A DNA stretch of 64,000 nucleotides from Patescibacteria group bacterium. Its GTDB lineage: Bacteria; Patescibacteriota; Microgenomatia; Levybacterales; UBA12049. The stretch spans positions 43,029 through 107,028 of the forward strand of contig JBBTTO010000003.1 of assembly GCA_038064195.1 (NCBI GenBank). The letters are read 5' to 3'. Below, one piece after another: positions 4,258-15,937 of this stretch. The translations under genes and the position numbers were made by a program. Each line of letters starts with the position of its first letter. Position 1 is the stretch's first letter. The notes below the pieces were generated by a model. It saw only the letters and a list, made by a program, of their open reading frames with translations, did no database searches and had not been told where the DNA came from.

Positions 4258-4719
4258 GTGAAAGAGAGGTTTGTCATGGCTCTCGGATTTGGGCAAAAGC
4301 ACAAAGGGTCGGTCACCCTCCAAATGACCATCCCAAACCGCGAGACACACGATGCTCGCGTCGTCGTGCGGTTCGTGCAGATCAACGGCGTGAATACCTA
4401 TGGCAAGGAGGTCACTTTGGTGATCACCTCGTCAGAAGGGCGTCGGATGTGGTTGCCGGCATCTGTTGGCGATTTCGTCATTGAGAAGCGAGCGACTGCG
4501 ACGCATCTTGTCCCGAAAGGGGCGAAGGCGGAGGTCTATCTGGATGTGATGGGCGATTTCTTTTCGCCAGAGTCCAGATCAGGGACGACTCATGTCACAG
4601 TGCAGGTGCAAGTCGACGGCAAGCTGATCAGCAGCAAGCCGATTCTCGATGTCGTTTTGAGGCGTGATCCTCGGTTTGGCAGCGAGCGGATTGCTCGTGA
4701 GACATTTTCCAGAGCTTGA
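4258..4719 (+). CDS. Hypothetical protein (first ORF of the GC-rich island)
   Basis: 153-aa ORF in a region of clearly higher GC (about 55-60%). No recognisable motif. A likely start is MALGFGQ. Confidence 0.35.
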   Translation: MKERFVMALGFGQKHKGSVTLQMTIPNRETHDARVVVRFVQINGVNTYGKEVTLVITSSEGRRMWLPASVGDFVIEKRATATHLVPKGAKAEVYLDVMGDFFSPESRSGTTHVTVQVQVDGKLISSKPILDVVLRRDPRFGSERIARETFSRA

Positions 4720-5086
4720 ATGAAGGGTAAAGCTAGGAGGCACTAGGGCGACCTGCCCGCAATGCTACACATAGCGTTGCAGGCGGGGAAAGCCAACTGG
4801 TTTGGGATTGTCCGCCTATGGCGAGACGGTCTCAGGGCAGCCGTGCCTCCGGCTTCGCCAAGTCTGACTTGGCTTCGCTTATATCTTTGCACATTAACAC
4901 AACTCATAGGGAGTTATCCCGCTTACAAGCAGGATAGGGTTCTTCATGGAAGTCTCATATGCATGACTCTCCATTGATGAGCACCATAATTTGTTTGTAG
5001 TGGGATCGTCTCTCTGTGAATCTATATGATGGAACTGTCTGCGACAGCCTAGAGGTAAGCATACTTACTTCTCGGGTGTTGCAGGC

Positions 5087-5497
5087 ATGCGCTTGCAGCC
5101 TAACGCTCAGCATTTACTCCAAAGGGAGGAGTGGATTATGAAAGCTTCAGAGCTCGCGGATGAGCTGATCAAAATGGGTGTCAGGTCGGTGCCGTTTAAG
5201 TATCGTGAGACGCTCGCGGGACTGGTCGAGTGCGGCGGTGACGATTGGAAGTTAACGCTCGTGGTCATCCGAACTGCCGTTGAGCTACTTAACGCGAAGT
5301 CGCTGGTCGGCATCGATGAGTCGAATCTGTTGGCCGCCTTGGTTTTCCCAGACCGGTTGGAAGAGCTTATCCAGACGCGTGGATGGGCGGTCACCCTCAC
5401 CGGCGCCTTGCCTCTTGCGGCGTTCAGGTTGGCAATCTTCCTCTACATTCAGGATCGCAAGCCGGGCTTCAACGTCCACCGATCATCAGATTTCTAA
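5087..5497 (+). CDS. Hypothetical protein (GC-rich island); likely start MKASELADEL at about 5137
   Basis: ORF with coding-like composition. No recognisable domain. Confidence 0.3.
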   Translation: MRLQPNAQHLLQREEWIMKASELADELIKMGVRSVPFKYRETLAGLVECGGDDWKLTLVVIRTAVELLNAKSLVGIDESNLLAALVFPDRLEELIQTRGWAVTLTGALPLAAFRLAIFLYIQDRKPGFNVHRSSDF

Positions 5498-5859
5498 TTC
5501 CATCAGCAACTTCACAGATGACGATTGGCCGACTCCATCGAGAGTCGGCCGCGTCCCATGTATTTGAGCTCCTTCTCAAATCTATGGAGCGGACAAGTGT
5601 ACTTTAACAGTTTAGCTTCATAAGGAGTTATCTGGATTTAAGCGATAGGAGAAAAGAGATAAGCAATAAGGAGTTGACTATATGTTAACTTATCACTTGT
5701 TGCTTCTTGCTTATTACTTACTTCCAGATCGTCTCCTTATGAACCCCGATTTAATTGGGGTCAACTCAGATTTTTGTCTGACGACGGCTTTTTGTCTCTT
5801 AAAGACAGGAGATAGGAAGCCGTCGTTAGGTACGACGTAGTAGTCTCTCTCGCTCCCGC

Positions 5860-6114
5860 TTGCGGGATAGGAGAAAGGAGCGGACAGGTATGCCCACCGA
5901 GGCAGAGTTATTCTGGTTTCCAAAGGTTCGTAAGAGGTTCCTCGATTGGATCGAAGGGCCAAACGGCGAAATTTGTTGCGCCGGATTCTCTCCGATGTCC
6001 AAGCACGCGGAAAGGTTGGGTCAGCTTGAACGTTTCGCCCGAAACCTTCCAAGCAGATACGAGAAGGTCGTATCGGTTCTGGCGAGTCAGCCGACCATGA
6101 GGAGTAAGTCTTAG
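5860..6114 (+). CDS. Hypothetical small protein (GC-rich island)
   Basis: 84-aa ORF. The internal start MPTEAELF is possible. No motif recognised. Confidence 0.2.
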   Translation: MRDRRKERTGMPTEAELFWFPKVRKRFLDWIEGPNGEICCAGFSPMSKHAERLGQLERFARNLPSRYEKVVSVLASQPTMRSKS

Positions 6115-6122
6115 TATTCGAG

Positions 6123-6533
6123 TTGGGGTGGACAGCTTTGCGGCAAAAGCCGATCAAGAAGGGGTTAGCAATGCAAGTCTGGGTTCCGGCTCGCCGACGA
6201 TTTCCTCAAGGAAGGGGTCACGGGATCATGAGAACTCGAACGACAAGGCTTCCGCTAACGGCTGAACAAGCCGCGGAAGCTGCAGAAAGAACTCAGGTTC
6301 GCCGCCTAGCCGATCAAATCGAGCGAGACCAAGCTCGAATCGCCGAACTAACCAGCCGGAACTGTCATCGGCGGAACGACCGCAAGTTTCTTCGTGAGTG
6401 CTCGATTCGCTCCGAGGCTAACCTGCAACGGCTTGCTGTAGTTCGCCCCGAACACCCGTTGATTACGGGCAAAGCCCGATGCAAGCGCAAGCGTCGCGCG
6501 CGCAATGGGAACTGGAAGCGCAACAAGAACTGA
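6123..6533 (+). CDS. Hypothetical basic protein with an Arg/Lys-rich C-terminus (GC-rich island)
   Basis: 136-aa ORF ending ...KARCKRKRRARNGNWKRNKN. Two hairpins follow it immediately. Confidence 0.3.
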   Translation: MGWTALRQKPIKKGLAMQVWVPARRRFPQGRGHGIMRTRTTRLPLTAEQAAEAAERTQVRRLADQIERDQARIAELTSRNCHRRNDRKFLRECSIRSEANLQRLAVVRPEHPLITGKARCKRKRRARNGNWKRNKN

Positions 6534-6552
6534 GTTCTAAGAGACGAGGAAA

Positions 6553-6580
6553 GGCCACGTCAAACGTGGCCCCCTGAATC
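6553..6580 (+). terminator. Tandem hairpins GGCCACGT-caa-ACGTGGCC and CCCTGA-a-TCAGGG followed by a T-rich tract
   Basis: Seen directly, 20 nt after the stop of 6123..6533. The second hairpin is followed by taaagttttt. Confidence 0.4.
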
Positions 6581-6596
6581 AGGGTAAAGTTTTTGG

Positions 6597-6720
6597 CTCG
6601 AGGGTACACGGTCCCGATGCAAATCGGGGCCACCAGTCAGTCGACACCCATGCTACAAAGGCGTAGCCGGACGGCGTCGTCAGAGTGGCCGTACCCTCGG
6701 CCTCGCTCTTTTGCTTTTAA
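6597..6720 (+). other. Structured non-coding element: 9-bp long-range inverted repeat (ctcgagggtac ... gtaccctcg) closing about 100 nt, then hairpin GGCCG-taccct-CGGCC plus TCGCTCTTTTGCTTTT
   Basis: Seen directly. It resembles a small RNA with its own intrinsic terminator at the right edge of the GC-rich island. Confidence 0.3.
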
Positions 6721-6824
6721 GATTTTTGAAAGTAGAAAAGTGAGGCTAATATAGGGACAAATGATATCCTTGAGTAGTAGTTTGATCTGGATCAAAATGA
6801 AGGCAATGATGGGGGAGAAGTAAG

Positions 6825-7040
6825 CTAAACAGTACCGCTTTTTTCTTGAATTCCCAAAAGCCAAAGGACCGCTTCTTTTTTGTAGCGGCGGTCACCGCGG
6901 GAGTTGATACGGATGGCGGGGAGTTTGCCTCTTTTGCCCCAGCGTTTGATAGTCAGGGGAGAGACTCTGAGAACTTCGGCTACCTCACGTACTGTTAGGA
7001 GATCTGGTAGGTCGTTGATTGATATCTTTTGATCGGTCAT
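6825..7040 (-). CDS. Excisionase-family HTH DNA-binding protein (HTH_17-like)
   Basis: LLTVREVAEVLRVSPLTIKRWGKRGKLPAIRINSRGDRRYKKEAV. Same family signature as the 1335..1670 protein. Confidence 0.55.
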   Translation of the reverse strand: MTDQKISINDLPDLLTVREVAEVLRVSPLTIKRWGKRGKLPAIRINSRGDRRYKKEAVLWLLGIQEKSGTV

Positions 7041-7149
7041 AGCCTGAAGAGTATTGCTTAGATAATCATTATGATGGTTACCTGCTAATAAAGTAACAAA
7101 CTATAACATCTATGTCAATGCCCTATAACTTTTTGGATGAGCAAAATAC

Positions 7150-7404
7150 CTAATTGGGGAGGACTCCAAGCAGCACGGTAACTTCATCATTAACAACTGA
7201 AAGCATCCCGCGCGTTACATCGTAGGATTTTTTTTCGCCGGGGAGATGGATTTCAACTTTGTTCAGGATAAGGGAGATAAAATGCTCATGTCCTGACAGA
7301 ATATCAAATGATCCTTTCTCATTGCGAGAGGAGACAGCCTCAGCATCTCCGGTAAATAATACGCCGGTTCGATCATGAACAGTAACTTTAAGAAATTGTG
7401 ACAT
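7150..7404 (-). CDS. atpC: F-type ATP synthase epsilon subunit (short form)
   Basis: 84 aa immediately downstream of beta. The N-terminal beta-sandwich pattern (LKVTVHDRTGVLFTGDAEAVSSRNEKGSFDILSGHEHFISLI) resembles epsilon. Confidence 0.7.
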   Translation of the reverse strand: MSQFLKVTVHDRTGVLFTGDAEAVSSRNEKGSFDILSGHEHFISLILNKVEIHLPGEKKSYDVTRGMLSVVNDEVTVLLGVLPN

Positions 7405-7406
7405 AG

Positions 7407-9612
<2,206 letters not shown>

Positions 9613-9616
<4 letters not shown>

Positions 9617-11088
9617 GGGTTGTCGGCGAAAATGTCATTAGCGGTTTTGCGAGCAAGTTGGCCGGCCTCAAAGAGCGAAGAAGACAGCTCAACCTTTCCA
9701 ACCTTTTCTCTGACAGTAGAGTGTTTGGAAGTAAGCGCATGAAGCCTGTGAAGGTCTGAGAGTAACGTATCATTTTCTGATGTAATCCAGTACCCGTCCC
9801 AGACCAGCGCGATCATAAAAAACTGAAACCAGCTCTCATAGTTGCCAAGTTGCGGGAGATTGAAAAGAAGAGATAATTTGTCTGCTTTATGCAATGTGTC
9901 TTTAGCATCAGCAGATAGCTCCTGACTAAAATGACTAATCTGTAATAACCGTTCCGCTTGACTGAGAAAAGAGGTAACTGTTGAGATCGTTTCACGCATG
10001 AGCGGGGTCCTGGTCTGTCTGCCAACACGGGTTACTGACAGGAAGGGGTGAATAGCCGGGCGTTGTCCTTCCAGAAAACGTTCTTCGTCAAAGTATAAAT
10101 GCCCGTCTGTCATGGACATGAGGTTGGTCTGAATATAACCGGTGAGATCTCCCTGCTCTGTCTCGGCAATAGGAAGACAGGTTATAGAGACTGTTTTATC
10201 GTCAGTTATTTTGAAATTTCCCGCTCTCTCAAGTAATCTGGCATGCAGGTAGAAAATATCGCCCGGGTAGGCGTTTCGTCCGGGGAAGCGGCGGGCCAGG
10301 AGTGAGAGTTGGCGGTAAGCACGCGCGTGAGTAGTTACGTCATCCAAAACGATAAGGGTATCCTGTCCCATGTCTCTAAAGTATTCAGCGAGTCGCATGC
10401 CGCTAAAAGGAGTCAGCAGGATAAGTCCGGCAGGATCTTCAGGAGACGAGGCAATGATAACTACTTTTTCCAGACATTCGTGCTCTCGTAGTGTTTGAGC
10501 CATTGCCTTAACCGATGAAAGGGGCTTACCAATTGAGACATAAATACAGATTGTACCTAATCTGGCCTGAGTGATGAGTGTATCTTTAGCAAACTGCGTC
10601 TTTCCTGTTTTTCTGTCTCCTAAAAGTAATTCACGCTGGCCCATGCCAAGAGGAAGGAGTGTATCGACAAGGAGCGATCCGGTGAGACATTGTGTCTTTA
10701 TCTTCGCCCGTCGGCTGATCCCGCTTGCCTTTATTTCGACCTCAAGCGGTTCTGGTGTCCGCATCCGGTATGAACTTATGTAGTCATCTCCTAAGGGTGA
10801 AACAATCTTTCCCAGCAGATGCTCACTGGCTGGGAACATGACGCGTTCACCTGTTCTGACAGCTTTTATATCAGGAGTAGGTGGGTCACCTTTAATAAGG
10901 ACAATTTGACTACTCTCCTGGCCGATACTAAAGACAAATCCAATCGCCTCATTCTCAAGGAGGATTTTCTCATTAAGGAGTACTCCTTTGAGCCCTGAGA
11001 CAGTAAATAGGTGTCCATCGGCCGTTATGACAATCCCTTGTGGAAATTGCTTTTGAGAATAGGCCGCGAATGTTTCCTGTTCTGTCAT
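9613..11088 (-). CDS. atpA: F-type ATP synthase alpha subunit
   Basis: Walker A GDRKTGKTQFAKDTLITQ and an alpha-type N-terminal beta-barrel. 491 aa. Confidence 0.95.
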
Positions 11089-11132: not shown

Positions 11133-11903
11133 TTAGATAACGAGCATGAAATAGGCTACTCCGACTCCGACAAGGATGATGAGTGCTGCCAGAATAACAT
11201 GAAAGACTACGCTCAGAAGGATAAGTTTACCAGCCAGGGGGTTGCGTCCGATAGCTTCAATGCCAAGTGATGAAATTTTGCCAAAAAAGGTTACCGCGAT
11301 AAAAAATGAGGCTATGATAAGAGCCGCGGCGAAAAGATAACGGAGCGCGTTAAGGGGGGAGAGGTAAGGGGCAGTGAGAGCAGTTTGAAATGTACTGAAA
11401 AGATTTTGCTTAACCCCACCTGATTCGGCATTAAAACTGATATTAAGAACAACAAGTATCTTCCCGATAGCTTTGCTGTCTTTTGCCGTGTAATCCTGGA
11501 TAGCTGTTCCTATGACATAACCGTCACTCGTGGCTTTTTGTCCGACTCCAGGTATACTTGAGGCGGTAATGAGATCGCCTCGCTTGATTACTCCGTTGAT
11601 AGTTGAGACTCTTACATGGACTTTTCCCGTGGATATGACAGGCTTGGTGTTAGGAAGAGCAGTATTCTCAAATGAAACGGAGGGATTTTCAGCGACAACG
11701 CCAAAGACGCTTGCCTCATAGCTGCTTCGGGTCAGGTCATAGCCATTTTTCGTCAGACGGATGATATCTCCTTCCTGAACCGGTCCTTTAAGAGGTATAT
11801 AGGTAGCAATTCCGCTGGATATTGCTTCTTGCGCGTGAGCCGGACGGGAAGCCAGTAAAGAGAGACTAAATACTATGAGTAGGATAGAACTGAATTTGCT
11901 CAT
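11133..11903 (-). CDS. Secreted/membrane protein leading the atp operon: signal peptide, soluble domain, and a C-terminal two-helix hairpin resembling an ATP synthase c-subunit but without the ion-binding carboxylate
   Basis: N-terminal MSKFSSILLIVFSLSLLASRPAHA signal. The C-terminus (ALIIASFFIAVTFFGKISSLGIEAIGRNPLAGKLILLSVVFHVILAALIILVGVGVAYFMLVI) has the Gly-rich helix 1 and an RNP loop like c-subunit 'ARQP'. Helix 2 has no Asp/Glu. It sits 45 nt upstream of atpA on the same strand. Confidence 0.35.
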   Translation of the reverse strand: MSKFSSILLIVFSLSLLASRPAHAQEAISSGIATYIPLKGPVQEGDIIRLTKNGYDLTRSSYEASVFGVVAENPSVSFENTALPNTKPVISTGKVHVRVSTINGVIKRGDLITASSIPGVGQKATSDGYVIGTAIQDYTAKDSKAIGKILVVLNISFNAESGGVKQNLFSTFQTALTAPYLSPLNALRYLFAAALIIASFFIAVTFFGKISSLGIEAIGRNPLAGKLILLSVVFHVILAALIILVGVGVAYFMLVI

Positions 11904-12128: not shown

Positions 12129-12155
12129 CTTGACATCCAAGCATGGGAATATAAT
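12129..12155 (+). promoter_or_regulatory. Candidate sigma70-like promoter (TTGACA-15nt-TATAAT) for the large surface-protein gene
   Basis: Seen directly. The TTG that opens the ORF-track call at 12130 is the -35 box itself, so the true start must be downstream. Confidence 0.3.
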
Positions 12156-15100
12156 ACTGTACATAGAGGAAGTATTTTCACAGATTCAGGCAATAAATTG
12201 GAGGCTTCATCTGCTCAACCAACAATCTCTTATATCAGGTTTAATCGCTCAGTTGAGAACAACGAGGGGAAAGCTTAGCTTTCTCTTCTTTGGCATGGTT
12301 TTATTTTCCGGCTTGAGTGTCATTGGCGTTAATGCCTTCTTACGGTTTGTTTTTTCTCCTGCCAAGCCTCAAGAATTAAGCTCCGCTACAAGGGGCGGCC
12401 TGGCAGTACTGGCGGCAACTGACGAGCAGCCGGAGTTTATCTTTAATGTGAATGTTCCTGCTTTCTTCAAAGAGAAAAGTGAATTTCAGTCAGATGTTCT
12501 GGTTAAGGGCGGGATGGTCGTGACAGGTGAGACTGTGATGAATGGCAAGATCATCGTTGGGAATGTCATTTATTCATTGACCGCGGGGAGTGGTATTAGT
12601 ATCAGTTCCGGACAGACACCAACTATTGCCAATACAGGGGTCTTATCTCTTCAGGATAAGAGTGGTGATCTTGACTTTACTCAAGGTGACGGAATCACGA
12701 TTGATGGCTTGAAGTTCACTAATGCTGATCGGGGATCGTCACAAAAGATGTTTAAGACCATTACGGTCTCAGGTCAAACAGATATTGTCGCTGCCAATAA
12801 CACGGATACACTGATTTTTGCTGCCGGCAGTGGAGTGACACTCACCACAAACGCGACTACCAAGCAGTTAACCATCGCTGCCTCAGGCGGCAGCAGTCAG
12901 TGGACGACAAGTGGCCTTGACATCTACTACTCCTCAGGTAACGTCGGAATTGGAACTACAAGTCCCACAGAGGCTCTGCACATTGTTGGCAATCTCAAGC
13001 TTAGCGGCACGACGACATTTAATGGGGTAACTTATACGTGGCCCTCAAGCGATGGATCGGGTAACTATGTCCTGTCAACAAATGGTTCAGGCACACTCTC
13101 ATGGGCAAATGTCTCAAGTTTAGTTACTAACTACTGGCAGCTTAGTAGTGGGGCAGTATCTCCTGCCAGCATTACAAACGATCTATTGCTGGGCGGGACA
13201 TCAACTGCTTCGGCGCTGATCAAATTTACTGGTACCTCAGGAGGAAATAGCTTTATTAATACTGCAAATCTTGGAATAGGCAGTACTAATCCGCAAGCAA
13301 AGCTTGATGTCAATGGCAGCATTATCGCAGCCGGAACCATAACTGGCTTGACAGGACTTACCTCCAGTGGAACGATTACTTTTTCAGGTTTTTCAACCAA
13401 TGGTGGGCTGCTCTATACCAATGGCAGTGGTGTAATGGCTCAAGCCGGAGCAGGTACAGGCTCTCAATGTCTTTTGGGAGGTACCACCCCTGCCTGGGGA
13501 TCATGCGGGGTAGACTCACAGTGGACGACAACAGGAAGTGATATTTATTACAATACCGGGAATGTCGGTATCGGCACAACTGCGCCTGTCGGCAAGCTGG
13601 ATGTAGAGGGTAAAGTGACCGGAAAGGCATTAGTCGTCCTTAACGAGACAGGCAACCAGGATATCTTCACAGCCAGTAGCTCAGGAGCTTCTAAATTCTC
13701 AATCACCAATGCCGGTAATATTAATTTCAAATCATCATCTTCATCAATTGGTCAGGGCAATACCATCTATGGATCAGATCTCTCAAGCGGTAATCTCTTC
13801 CTCATCTCTACAACTCATGCTACCAAAGGACGAGTCAATTTCCATGACACCCTTAACTATATAGATAGCACAGGAACTCTTAGCTTACAGGGTGATGCGA
13901 CGTTTAGCGGTGGTAACATCGGTATTGGTACAGGAGCAAATCCGGTTGCTGCTATCAGGTTAAATGGCACCTCAACCTTTGATGTCTATTCGGTAATCGG
14001 TTCGCCGACCTTGACTATCACCAATACGGGGGTTGGACTGAAGCCAACAATTGCTATTGTGGGGAACCTGAGTGTCTCCCAGTATGCCACCGTCAGCGCT
14101 TCCCTGGCTGTCGGGTACTCTTCCGTCCCGGCTGGTACAGGCAATGCCGTCTTCTCCGGCAATGTCGGTATCGGGACGACTCTTACTTCCACATCTCCTT
14201 TGGCAGTTGCCAATTTGCCAACCGGTGGGATCATAACCCTCATGGTTGATGCTGATGGCAATGTCTTTAAGGCAGCCTCGTCTATCCGCTATAAAGACAA
14301 TATTCAACCTTTCTCAACCGATTTCAAAAAGATTCTTTTTGCCTCACCCAAAAAGTATACTTACAAGTCAACCGGGACAGCCGATATCGGTTATTTAGCT
14401 GAGGAGTTTGATCAACTGGGATTGACAGACTTGGTTATCTATGACAAAGACAACAGACCGGATGCGTTAAAGTACGACAAGATCTCCCTTTTTATGCTGG
14501 AGGTGATGAAAGGTCAACAAAACGATATCCAGGCTCTTAAAGCTGCTCTTCCCGGGTTGACGACCACGCAGTCTAGTAGTCAGCTTGATGCGGTTGACGT
14601 GAAGGACTTGGTCGCAACCTCAGTTGCCGGTCTCAGTACAAAAGCCTCAGATCAGGGACCTTCGACAAGTGATGGGCTGAGTGCCTCTCTTGCGACAATC
14701 TCAGGTGAGCTGAGGGTCAAAGGGAATGGCCTCATTGAGGGTATCCTCACTGTCGTTGATACGCTGATTGCTCATAACGTTATCCTGAGCGGAACGGTTA
14801 ACTTCTTCGGTGATACGATCTTTAAAGGCGCAGTTGATTTTTATAAACCGCCCGTCTTTAGTAGAGATACTGCAGGTATGGCTATCATCACCAGGGACGC
14901 GACTGAGGTGGAAGTCGTCTTTGGGACTGAGTATAAGGCTGTGCCAATGATTAATGCGACTATCGATGTCATTAAGCTCACGCGGAATAAGGATGAATCT
15001 GATGACGCGTACGCGAAGCGTCAGGATGACCTGGAGCAGGCCTTATTAAATAGTGACGTACGCTTTATCGTTACACGTAAAACCGTCAAAGGATTTGTCA

Positions 15101-15288
15101 TTCGTTTGAGTAAGCCAGCGTCTGTTGATGTCTCATTTTCCTGGACAGCGCTAGTGGTCAAAGATCAGTTGACAGATGTGCCTAAGCTGGATAACAATGC
15201 CAAGCAGTTCATTCCTGCTCCAACAGTCACTACTCCACCGGGTTTACCTCCTGATCAGTCTTCATCCTCGAGCGCTACTCAGAACTAA
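12130..15288 (+). CDS. Giant cell-surface protein with tail-fibre-like repeats and a C-terminal S74-type intramolecular chaperone domain; probable real start ATG at about 12295 (MVLFSGLSVIGVNAFL signal anchor)
   Basis: Internal repeats SQWTTSGLDIYYSSGNVGIGTTSP..L.V.G recur at about 12895, 13520 and 13900. The C-terminal block SSIRYKDNIQPFS...GYLAEEFDQLGL...PDALKYDKISLFMLEVMKGQQ matches the autoproteolytic chaperone domain of phage tail-spike/endosialidase-type fibres. Confidence 0.65.
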   Translation: MTSKHGNIILYIEEVFSQIQAINWRLHLLNQQSLISGLIAQLRTTRGKLSFLFFGMVLFSGLSVIGVNAFLRFVFSPAKPQELSSATRGGLAVLAATDEQPEFIFNVNVPAFFKEKSEFQSDVLVKGGMVVTGETVMNGKIIVGNVIYSLTAGSGISISSGQTPTIANTGVLSLQDKSGDLDFTQGDGITIDGLKFTNADRGSSQKMFKTITVSGQTDIVAANNTDTLIFAAGSGVTLTTNATTKQLTIAASGGSSQWTTSGLDIYYSSGNVGIGTTSPTEALHIVGNLKLSGTTTFNGVTYTWPSSDGSGNYVLSTNGSGTLSWANVSSLVTNYWQLSSGAVSPASITNDLLLGGTSTASALIKFTGTSGGNSFINTANLGIGSTNPQAKLDVNGSIIAAGTITGLTGLTSSGTITFSGFSTNGGLLYTNGSGVMAQAGAGTGSQCLLGGTTPAWGSCGVDSQWTTTGSDIYYNTGNVGIGTTAPVGKLDVEGKVTGKALVVLNETGNQDIFTASSSGASKFSITNAGNINFKSSSSSIGQGNTIYGSDLSSGNLFLISTTHATKGRVNFHDTLNYIDSTGTLSLQGDATFSGGNIGIGTGANPVAAIRLNGTSTFDVYSVIGSPTLTITNTGVGLKPTIAIVGNLSVSQYATVSASLAVGYSSVPAGTGNAVFSGNVGIGTTLTSTSPLAVANLPTGGIITLMVDADGNVFKAASSIRYKDNIQPFSTDFKKILFASPKKYTYKSTGTADIGYLAEEFDQLGLTDLVIYDKDNRPDALKYDKISLFMLEVMKGQQNDIQALKAALPGLTTTQSSSQLDAVDVKDLVATSVAGLSTKASDQGPSTSDGLSASLATISGELRVKGNGLIEGILTVVDTLIAHNVILSGTVNFFGDTIFKGAVDFYKPPVFSRDTAGMAIITRDATEVEVVFGTEYKAVPMINATIDVIKLTRNKDESDDAYAKRQDDLEQALLNSDVRFIVTRKTVKGFVIRLSKPASVDVSFSWTALVVKDQLTDVPKLDNNAKQFIPAPTVTTPPGLPPDQSSSSSATQN

Positions 15289-15937
15289 GCGGGATTCGTC
15301 TGCCGAATTGATCAACTAGGGTGAAGGAATCAGAGATAGTGCCAGCCTCTTGCGCGGTTTGAACGCTTTGTCTGACCTGCTCTATCACAGGGGTAGTATT
15401 AAAGCGGGCGTCAGAAATTTGGGAGGCTTCCAGGGCGGGAAAAAGCAAGAATACCATTCCCAGTAGATCACCAGACTCTATAGCTAACTGCCCCTGAACC
15501 TCTAAATGGTTTTGATCTGTTATTGCAACTCTTTCAGAAGGCACGACATAGCCAATTCGAAGGGAGGGATTACGAACAAATCTGTCTGAGAGATAGTTGG
15601 CTGTTTTAAGAGCGTCCCTTATCCGATCATGCCCGTCAAATCCGATTCCGGACAGTCTGCCAGTCAATCTGTCAAAAAGAATGGTATCTTGACTACTTGG
15701 GTAGGTTTTATCTTTATTTTCTCCAGCTGGAGTCAATCCATGAGCTAAATCTTCATCAAGACTTGTCAGGCTTCCTCCAACTAGCGCGTGTTGAGGGGTA
15801 AAAAGGCGGAACTCTGTCATATGGTGCCCTTCATGTCGCGTGTTATCTGATCTTAATTTCTCAGTCATTGGGGAATAGTATACCAAAGTCAGAATCGACG
15901 AGGCCGTAGAATGCCCTGGAAGGCCTGTGAGGGACAA
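15275..15937 (-). CDS. Hypothetical protein (convergent with the surface-protein gene, 14-nt overlap)
   Basis: 220-aa ORF. No confident motif. Possible internal start at MTEKLRSD. Confidence 0.35.
   Translation of the reverse strand: MSLTGLPGHSTASSILTLVYYSPMTEKLRSDNTRHEGHHMTEFRLFTPQHALVGGSLTSLDEDLAHGLTPAGENKDKTYPSSQDTILFDRLTGRLSGIGFDGHDRIRDALKTANYLSDRFVRNPSLRIGYVVPSERVAITDQNHLEVQGQLAIESGDLLGMVFLLFPALEASQISDARFNTTPVIEQVRQSVQTAQEAGTISDSFTLVDQFGRRIPLSSE

Follow-up and report, generated by a model that had tools for sequence, protein, structure and literature searches.

In a 64-kb window of a Patescibacteria contig (the whole stretch of 64,000 nucleotides that was analysed), an uninterrupted open reading frame (ORF) of 1052 codons at 12130..15288 on the forward strand appears, on balance, to encode a type-II membrane-anchored, phage-fibre-like surface fibre of groundwater Patescibacteria. 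The fibre would be adhesive and similar to the mosaic adhesive trimer (MAT) fibres of Bdellovibrio, with an anchored trimer predicted to cleave itself at Ser717. The observations on which this account is built are the order of domains, the catalytic dyad, homology to S74 domains and MAT repeats, the fold of a C-terminal module and the chromosomal, syntenic context of the gene; residue numbers throughout are those of the 1052-codon ORF. The organism is probably of the Microgenomates type. An identical protein has been recorded from a 0.1-µm metagenome of Hainich groundwater, and the corresponding 90%-identity cluster contains 997- and 1052-residue versions of the protein from different gene callers together with MEK7605624.1, an NCBI entry named 'hypothetical protein' from a Patescibacteria group bacterium. 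The features of the gene, all on the forward strand, are as follows.

12130..12158, forward strand: promoter-like element TTGACA-N17-AATACT, scoring 10/12, the TTG of which is the 'start codon' of the 1052-codon ORF
12200..12204, forward strand: GGAGG, Shine-Dalgarno-like site read from the sequence, 6 nt before the in-frame CTG at 12211
12211..15288, forward strand: probable coding sequence of the fibre, about 1025 residues, placed by the N-termini of relatives at about codon 28 (maximal ORF 12130..15288)
12268..12354, forward strand: single transmembrane signal-anchor, residues 47-75, after the basic sequence RTTRGK (hydropathy scan)
12355..12894, forward strand: conserved juxtamembrane domain, residues 76-255, with the motif VLAAxDEQPxFIFNVNVPxFF, common to all fibres at this genomic position
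12895..14277, forward strand: shaft and tip, residues 256-716, with five MAT-type GNVGIGTTxPxxKLxVxG repeats (motif scan, repeat profile)
14278..14544, forward strand: S74 intramolecular chaperone/autoprotease, residues 717-805 (Pfam, invariant dyad, profile against solved domains)
14545..14703, forward strand: Ser/Thr/Ala-rich linker, residues 806-858 (read from the sequence; predicted local distance difference test score, pLDDT, below 50 in the modelled part)
14704..15165, forward strand: C-terminal module, comprising a stalk (residues 859-909) and a putative H-type-lectin-like beta-sandwich (residues 910-1012) with a helical insert of about 35 residues
15166..15285, forward strand: Pro/Ser-rich C-terminal tail, residues 1013-1052 (read from the sequence; hydropathy scan)

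Shaft repeats

The fibre contains five copies of the repeat core N[VIL]G[IL]G[TS], at residues 271, 380, 478, 596 and 678, and two of SQWTT, at residues 256 and 463, so that two repeats carry the extended prefix SQWTTxGxDIYY. The same motif was found 405 times in 101 of 119 homologues. When a profile of 44 units from the target and its relatives was searched against the whole PDB, only five sequences were matched, all of them from Bdellovibrio MAT fibre structures: 8ond (Bd2133; E 5.9e-22), 8oml (E 3e-13), 8ol4/8onf (E 1.8e-12), 8ojn/8onb/8onc (E 7.7e-7) and 8on4 (E 7e-6). The segment SQWTTSGSDIYYNTGNVGIGTT is present verbatim in MAT-like proteins of Bdellovibrio sp. HCB-110, which terminate in S74, and among species-representative genomes the motif was noted in many Patescibacteria as well as in Bdellovibrionales, Bacteriovoracaceae, Bacteroidota, Omnitrophota and others. 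No match to residues 1-674 of the fibre was found by tblastn in 50,697 phage records.

An earlier note on this DNA, made from the sequence alone, had described a Gly/Thr/Ser/Asn-rich protein with repeated blocks typical of phage tail fibres, including the L-shaped fibre of T5. The composition (T 11.4, G 11.2, S 11.1 and N 5.7%) and the blocks themselves are as described, but their attribution to phage fibres is at odds with the absence of a phage match and with PDB matches confined to MAT fibres. Judged from sequence, the repeats are the 'capping-loop' shaft repeat described for Bdellovibrio MAT fibres (PMC10769870), that is, a repeat of cellular fibres and not a signature of phage shafts. The MAT consensus as printed, V-G-G/N-pi-x-x-P-x-x-x-L, is one residue shorter than VGIGTTxPxxxL (PMC10769870).

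S74 domain and predicted cleavage site

The sequence SSIRYKDNI begins at residue 717, and residues 717-769 gave a borderline match to Pfam Peptidase_S74 (PF13884) with an E value of 2.1e-4; precomputed annotations of PF13884 were also present in relatives of the fibre protein. In an alignment of S74 regions from 25 proteins, the only invariant columns were those of Ser717, Lys722 and Ala757, the first two of which (SSIRYK) constitute the S-x4-K catalytic dyad, intact at the N-terminal edge of the domain. A profile of these 25 sequences, searched against the PDB, matched a long tail fibre distal subunit (6f45; E 1.3e-14), a putative tail fibre protein (8jov; E 9.3e-13), MYRF (7dc3; E 3.1e-11), the T5 L-shaped tail fibre pb1 (8hqz; E 1.3e-8) and the GA-1 neck appendage protein (3gud; E 4.8e-7). 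Profiles were required for these matches: the S74 region as a single sequence matched nothing in the PDB, the whole fibre protein gave only spurious phmmer matches to POT1 (E>0.1) and a PHROGs search returned just weak 'minor head protein' matches over the S74 region. By tblastn against the same 50,697 phage records, matches were confined to residues 675-815 and were to minor tail proteins of Streptomyces phages (29-32% identical, E down to 1e-7). Since the profile matches solved S74 domains and the region is matched by phage minor tail proteins, identification of the S74 domain is sound. Cleavage is predicted between Ala716 and Ser717, where Lys722 would act as the general base.

The S74 domain had been placed at the C-terminus of the protein. 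A real S74 domain is present, with the Ser717/Lys722 dyad and profile E values from 1e-14 to 5e-7, but it is internal, being followed (after residue 805) by 247 residues that comprise a linker, a short stalk and a folded module. At least 90 residues follow S74 in approximately 25 of the 35 S74-bearing relatives compared, so that an internal position of the domain is usual in the fibre family.

C-terminal lectin-like module

Residues 859 to 1012, approximately, were assigned with moderate confidence as an H-type-lectin-like module. In the AlphaFold model, pLDDT was about 90 over residues 910-1009, and the top Foldseek matches of the module were Helix agglutinins and discoidin II (probability 1.0, E ~6e-3); the fold also resembles the C-terminal domains of tailspikes. 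Pfam H_lectin (PF09458) matched 7 of 13 aligned members of the module family, with a best E value of 2.4e-7, and was precomputed in two relatives (P0040 and P0051), while the target itself gave no match. Nothing significant was found with a profile of the module against PDB sequences, fold comparison alone being informative. The module shares its beta-sandwich fold with H-type lectins (Helix pomatia and Helix aspersa agglutinins, discoidins I and II, SLL-2) and with the C-terminal domains of phage tailspikes and R-pyocin fibres, but differs from H-type lectins in falling under every Pfam threshold and in its helical insert of about 35 residues.

A word-indexed homologue search with the C-terminal 253 residues returned one protein, so that an exhaustive search of representatives was needed; this gave 1292 cluster representatives at E<=1e-3 and 704 at E<=1e-10. 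The carriers range from approximately 110 to 4430 residues, and in nearly all of them no more than about 30 residues separate the module from the C-terminus.

These results bear on a different account of the fibre, in which the internal S74 domain serves as a trimerization node that is uncut, or cut only upon a trigger, and the fibre, about 1000 residues long, stays intact with the far C-terminal lectin-like head as its distal tip. The module occupies the extreme C-terminus, where a fibre tip would be, in at least 1292 protein clusters; most of its carriers lack S74; H-type lectins and the similar tailspike domains are sugar-binding or tip domains; and the frequency of long extensions after S74 indicates that the arrangement has been selected for. 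If the lectin-like head is the tip, canonical cleavage would detach it. Ser717 and Lys722, however, are invariant with or without a downstream extension. To our knowledge, every S74 protein tested by experiment, endoNF, T5 pb1 and MYRF among them, cuts itself at this dyad on folding. In MYRF, the S74 domain is internal and yet self-cleaving. In a MAT protein, Bd3182, both S74 self-cleavage at the dyad and surface location have been demonstrated by experiment (PMC10769870). A fibre that is uncut, or cut only upon a trigger, is a possible but unlikely alternative to the anchored, self-cleaved trimer.

Membrane anchor and juxtamembrane domain

The N-terminal anchor that had been proposed was confirmed by the hydropathy scan, in which residues 47-75 formed the one hydrophobic segment of the fibre protein and no second was found. 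In about 22 of 120 listed relatives, the same helix follows a cytoplasmic MerR/HTH_17 domain of 60-200 residues, HTH denoting a helix-turn-helix; because a cytoplasmic domain precedes it in so many relatives, the helix is read as a membrane anchor and not as a cleaved signal. The juxtamembrane domain that follows (residues 76-255) had no Pfam match and did not resemble the N-terminal region of a MAT-like protein from Bdellovibrio. At the other end of the protein, a C-terminal anchor of the sortase type was considered and rejected, no LPXTG motif being present in the Pro/Ser-rich tail.

5' end of the gene

The frame of 1052 codons that had been reported is uninterrupted, but its 5' end is probably over-called. 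The TTG at 12130 coincides with the -35 box of the promoter-like element, the GGAGG at 12200-12204 precedes an in-frame CTG at 12211, and the called N-termini of relatives in two related loci (L082 and L086) align to about codon 28 of the fibre ORF; on these grounds, translation probably starts at CTG 12211 to give a protein of about 1025 residues. The GGAGG is kept in the locus of the closest relative at the same position (L002), there 7 nt before an in-frame TTG. A scan of the region for promoters and terminators was at chance overall (7 sites found, 6.1 expected), so that the element is called a promoter on the strength of its conservation. The sequence cTTGACA-N17-A(T/A)TA(A/C)T also precedes the genes of the two closest relatives (L002 and L082), where intergenic DNA has otherwise diverged, and conservation of the element is clear in three loci only. 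Other potential starts are the TTG codons at 12130 and 12253, while an ATG at 12295 would cut the transmembrane helix. The 3' end of the fibre gene is overlapped by 14 nt by a 220-residue ORF on the reverse strand (15275-15937), which had no Pfam match and the position of which is not kept in related loci.

Fibre family and mosaicism

At least 850 proteins were retrieved at E<=1e-3 in a homologue search with the full-length protein, the named relatives being mostly from Woese-, Levy-, Roizman- and Shapirobacteria or the 'Patescibacteria group' and including some with the automatic names 'tail fiber domain-containing protein' and 'MerR family regulator'. Coverage by homologues peaks at residues 225-525 and drops toward both ends. 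Relatives at the same genomic position share the proximal part of the fibre and diverge in the distal part. Thus, the closest of these (P0002) is 60% identical over residues 26-452 and then continues into a right-handed Beta_helix domain with no S74, while another (P0004) is 56% identical over residues 90-289 and 31% identical over residues 477-1005; a third relative (P0014) is about 30% identical to the fibre. The Beta_helix domain that replaces the distal half in P0002 is of the pectate-lyase type, and a Peptidase_M23 protein of 1905 residues comes next in the same locus (L002, 4461-14773 for the two together), which hints at partners that degrade cell wall.

Distal domains were also distributed unevenly. 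Among 120 homologues, S74 was present in 30 and a Peptidase_G2-like domain, similar to the ectodomain of the nb protein described below, in 24, with no protein having both (examples include P0023, P0114, P0117, P0126 and P0130, among others). The lectin module was present in 21 of the 120, in 5 cases with S74, in 11 with the nb-type domain and in 5 with neither. S74 and the nb-type domain behave as alternative phage-type chaperone cassettes, either of which can stand upstream of the same stalk and lectin module. As read from these comparisons, the conserved proximal part of the fibre consists of a short cytoplasmic tail, the transmembrane helix and the juxtamembrane domain, and the distal part is mosaic.

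A structural role, as an S-layer-like or spacer fibre of the envelope with no specific ligand, would suit a large, abundant-looking family in organisms with unusual envelopes, and no enzymatic or toxin domain was found in the fibre. Distal parts that are hypervariable and mosaic at a fixed locus are, however, the signature of a receptor-binding protein and not of a scaffold, and a lectin-like module is present; a purely structural fibre is accordingly improbable. A toxin-delivery protein was also considered and was rejected, since no toxin domain was found.

Linkage to the nb-atp operon

The immediate upstream neighbour of the fibre gene is a divergent gene, nb, which heads an operon of ATP synthase genes. 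The features of this region, all on the reverse strand, are as follows.

11133..11903, reverse strand: nb, 256 residues, comprising a signal peptide, an ectodomain with the phi29-gp12-type (Peptidase_G2) autochaperone fold and an F-ATPase c-subunit-like hairpin that lacks the membrane carboxylate
6825..11088, reverse strand: operon after nb (atpA, atpG, atpD, atpC and a MerR/HTH_17 protein)
9613-11088, reverse strand: atpA
8783-9616, reverse strand: atpG
7407-8798, reverse strand: atpD
7150-7404, reverse strand: atpC
6825-7040, reverse strand: stand-alone MerR/HTH_17 protein of 71 residues, which ends the atp operon

The fibre gene and an operon of the type nb-(b-delta)-alpha-gamma-beta-epsilon were paired in 10 of 10 related loci, in most of which they are adjacent and divergent; in two (L003 and L004) a distance of 2-5 kb, occupied by unrelated ORFs, separates them. 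Loci were picked both by means of fibre homologues (L002, L082, L083/L084, L085, L003 and L004) and, independently, by means of nb homologues (L086, L087 and L088). The latter three loci contain giant genes for proteins of 1935, at least 4470 and at least 1034 residues, respectively, which share with the target its transmembrane helix and the F-x-F-N-V-N-V/I-P juxtamembrane region. In one of the related loci (L004, 1218-2696), atpA of a Levyibacteriota relative is split in two ORFs by a frameshift or an assembly error.

The nb proteins of related loci are 40-84% identical, and the arrangement of fibre gene and nb-atp operon is therefore old. Because the fibre gene has the same place beside this operon in 10 of 10 diverged loci of the Microgenomates type, it too is read from sequence as old, vertically kept and lineage-wide, with a mosaic distal part. 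One suggestion of the earlier note is affected by this result: the fibre is not a one-off domesticated gene, having at least 850 relatives and a constant place. Proximity to the ATP synthase operon is not incidental and is the most conserved feature of the locus.

In L003 and L004, nb is separated from atpA by genes for b-like and delta-like proteins, and gene order indicates the same for L087 and L088; the delta-like gene was matched by OSCP in L003 (E 1.2e-9) and L087 (E 5.5e-5). The position of nb is therefore that of the c subunit. No gene for an a, b, delta or ordinary c subunit was found among the window ORFs scanned. The model of nb had a mean pLDDT of 83.7, and some members of the family are named 'F0F1-type ATP synthase membrane subunit c' by the Joint Genome Institute (JGI). 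The top three PDB matches of an nb family profile were c subunits, with the loop VEALGRNP in register, at E values of 0.5-1.3 that are not significant alone, and there was no Pfam ATP-synt_C match for nb. As sequence matches to c subunits are not significant, the c-like reading of nb rests on its fold, its gene position and the JGI names. No acidic residue was present in the second transmembrane segment of nb in 40 sequences, position 234 being a conserved Asn/His. At least 252 relatives of nb, uniform in length, were found, whereas tblastn with nb gave no match among the phage records.

The nb ectodomain, the fold of which is of the phi29 gp12 autochaperone or capsid-decoration type, is homologous to a block present in 128 of 266 giant proteins compared (E down to 4e-24), three of which exceed the Pfam Peptidase_G2 gathering score in this nb-type block. 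In nb, the signal peptide apart, one protein combines the fold of the C-terminal autochaperone of phi29 gp12 (Peptidase_G2, 3gqh) with an F-ATPase c-like hairpin and, unlike c subunits, has no ion-binding carboxylate. A literature search on ATP synthase c subunits of Microgenomates gave nothing relevant, and no description of an nb-type domain fusion was found.

An HTH of the same kind as that in the stand-alone protein at the end of the operon is fused to the cytoplasmic N-terminus of the fibre in many related genomes, examples being P0006, P0014 and the giant gene of L088. MerR regulators classically act on a divergent promoter. By analogy, a MerR-type HTH fused to a fibre could be a membrane-tethered regulator.

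These observations invite a broader reading, in which the fibre, nb and F1 genes form a single functional or regulatory module of Microgenomates-type Patescibacteria and an atypical F-type ATPase assembles, anchors, actuates or regulates the fibre. A c-like ring devoid of ion-binding carboxylates would then display chaperone or decoration domains of the phi29 gp12 type outside the cell, and regulation could pass through the MerR-type HTH that is fused to the fibre in many relatives and is stand-alone in the window. Consistent with such a module are the pairing in 10 of 10 loci, whether these were picked through the fibre or through nb; the place of nb at the c-subunit position, ahead of b-like, delta and alpha genes; the missing carboxylate; homology of the nb ectodomain to a domain that other fibre-family members carry in cis, never together with S74; and, in many fibre genes at this position, an N-terminal MerR-type HTH that faces the divergent operon. 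There is also a precedent in the F1-like ATPases of mycoplasmas, which are coupled to gliding and to MIB-MIP (PMC3369863, PMC8406192, PMC12994834). On the other hand, adjacency of genes is not function, other parts of the genome could contain genes for an a subunit and an ordinary c subunit, and in sequence the nb hairpin matches c subunits weakly (E ~0.5-1.3). The module is therefore put forward tentatively and regarded as doubtful.

Genes of the window and the question of phage origin

A Pfam scan of the larger ORFs of the window revealed housekeeping genes only, as listed below; the window also contains one 16S rRNA gene and six tRNA genes.

Energy and translation or transcription genes of the window: ATP synthase alpha, gamma, beta and epsilon; L7/L12, L10, L1, L11 and NusG
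Other genes of the window: histidine kinase, DNA polymerase A domain, topoisomerase I, MreB, MreC, PBP2 and glycosyltransferases

No phage structural or packaging gene was present among the larger ORFs scanned across the 64 kb, and the same was true of related loci; tblastn revealed no paralogue of the fibre elsewhere in the window. The G+C content across the fibre gene was unremarkable. Thus the chromosomal setting with no adjacent phage genes, as previously claimed, was borne out, and a prophage origin is excluded for this locus by a window of housekeeping genes with no phage gene among the larger ORFs scanned. Outside the fibre locus, a segment of about 2 kb (4750-6800) had a higher G+C content than the rest of the window (0.50-0.52 as opposed to about 0.44 elsewhere) and contained no convincing ORF; an Rfam search of 4600-7000 gave no match at E<=0.1.

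Recent domestication of a phage tail fibre, or a prophage remnant, could still be argued from the identity of the S74 region with minor tail proteins of Streptomyces phages, from the resemblance of the lectin-like module to tailspike C-terminal domains and from the automatic name 'tail fiber domain-containing protein' of some relatives. Only residues 675-815, however, match any phage record, the shaft matches only cellular MAT fibres, and the position of the locus is kept even in genomes in which nb is just 40-45% identical. With the housekeeping character of the window and the unremarkable G+C content of the gene, these findings make such an origin most improbable.

Discussion

The interpretation favoured here is that of an anchored, MAT-like adhesive fibre that cleaves itself, and a plausible sequence of events can be outlined. 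The chain would be exported by Sec and held by its uncleaved N-terminal helix, as relatives with a cytoplasmic HTH suggest. The S74 domain (residues 717-805), to judge from its homology to solved S74 domains, would bring three chains into register, after which the shaft of MAT-type capping-loop repeats (residues 256-716) would fold as a trimer. Ser717 and Lys722, the dyad being present, would then cut the chain between Ala716 and Ser717. The mature anchored fibre would end at residue 716, its exposed tip binding a glycan or protein on the surface of a partner or host cell, and a C-terminal fragment of 336 residues (S74, linker, stalk and lectin-like head) would be freed as a trimer or loosely retained; the lectin-like head of this fragment may itself bind sugar. 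Bdellovibrio MAT fibres (PMC10769870) and phage receptor-binding proteins make, by analogy, the adhesin role suggested in the earlier note the most plausible one.

Several points weigh against this interpretation. The S74 score of the single protein is borderline in Pfam, at 21.9 bits, 0.1 bit under the gathering score of 22. Trimerization, cleavage, surface exposure and the ligand are all inferred. A conserved lectin-like module downstream of the cleavage site is odd if that module is the adhesive tip, and an uncleaved or delayed-cleavage mode is possible. The start codon is likewise uncertain, since it could be CTG 12211, TTG 12130 or TTG 12253.

The closest known systems are the MAT fibres of B. 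bacteriovorus, of which 13 members of the S74 group have been described as 'terminating' in S74 (Caulton et al. 2024, PMC10769870). As in MATs, the protein is cellular, of about 1000 residues, with the same capping-loop repeat, an S74 domain with the S-x4-K dyad and a swappable, mosaic distal part. In a BLASTP comparison with a MAT-like protein of 1504 residues from Bdellovibrio sp. HCB-110, the shaft and S74 aligned and nothing upstream of residue 195 did so. MAT proteins have a signal peptide followed by an invariant beta-rich N-terminal domain of about 130 residues (PMC10769870), in place of which the fibre has a transmembrane anchor and a different juxtamembrane domain; as the invariant domain is absent, the fibre is not a strict member of the MAT family. 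It also differs from MATs in its internal S74, in belonging to another phylum and in its fixed place beside an atypical atp operon, and no MAT tip is described as having S74 and a lectin-like fold one after the other.

With phage fibres and spikes of the S74 type (K1F endosialidase, T5 pb1, S16 gp37 and GA-1 gp12), the protein shares a homologous S74 domain with its catalytic Ser and Lys. Unlike these, it is not a virion protein, its shaft is unrelated in sequence to deposited phages and some 250 residues, including a folded domain, extend past the chaperone. A parallel in layout is the ICA domain of MYRF (7dc3): MYRF is bound to the membrane, and its S74-type domain is internal and followed by others. 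The topology of MYRF is reversed relative to that of the fibre, which would keep its N-terminal product anchored and release its C-terminal product to the exterior of the cell. This fibre, unlike MYRF, has no DNA-binding domain, though many relatives have an N-terminal MerR-type HTH. Three differences set the fibre apart from both MAT and phage S74 fibres: its membrane anchor, an internal S74 followed by a lectin-like unit and its fixed pairing with the nb-atp operon. Like the F1-like X0 ATPases of mycoplasmas, nb and its operon represent an atypical F-type ATPase that, in a genome-reduced bacterium, is linked genetically to a surface system.

How ultra-small Patescibacteria recognize and attach to partner cells is largely unknown, type IV pili being the only structure tested in the literature retrieved, and literature searches yielded no description of S74-type or tail-fibre-like proteins from Patescibacteria. 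The present family, the members of which (at least 850) are membrane-anchored, phage- and MAT-like and have swappable tips, is a second, widespread candidate for attachment. It would extend the design of the Bdellovibrio MAT fibre to a monoderm-like, genome-reduced phylum, with the S74 chaperone used in mid-fibre. The pairing with an operon in which the 'c subunit' lacks an ion-binding carboxylate and bears a phage-type ectodomain raises the question of what role this ATP synthase has, and whether it may serve the cell surface. If so, the ATPase, coupled perhaps to assembly, anchoring, movement or contact-dependent regulation of the fibre, would have its counterpart in the F1-like ATPases by which surface systems of mycoplasmas are driven.

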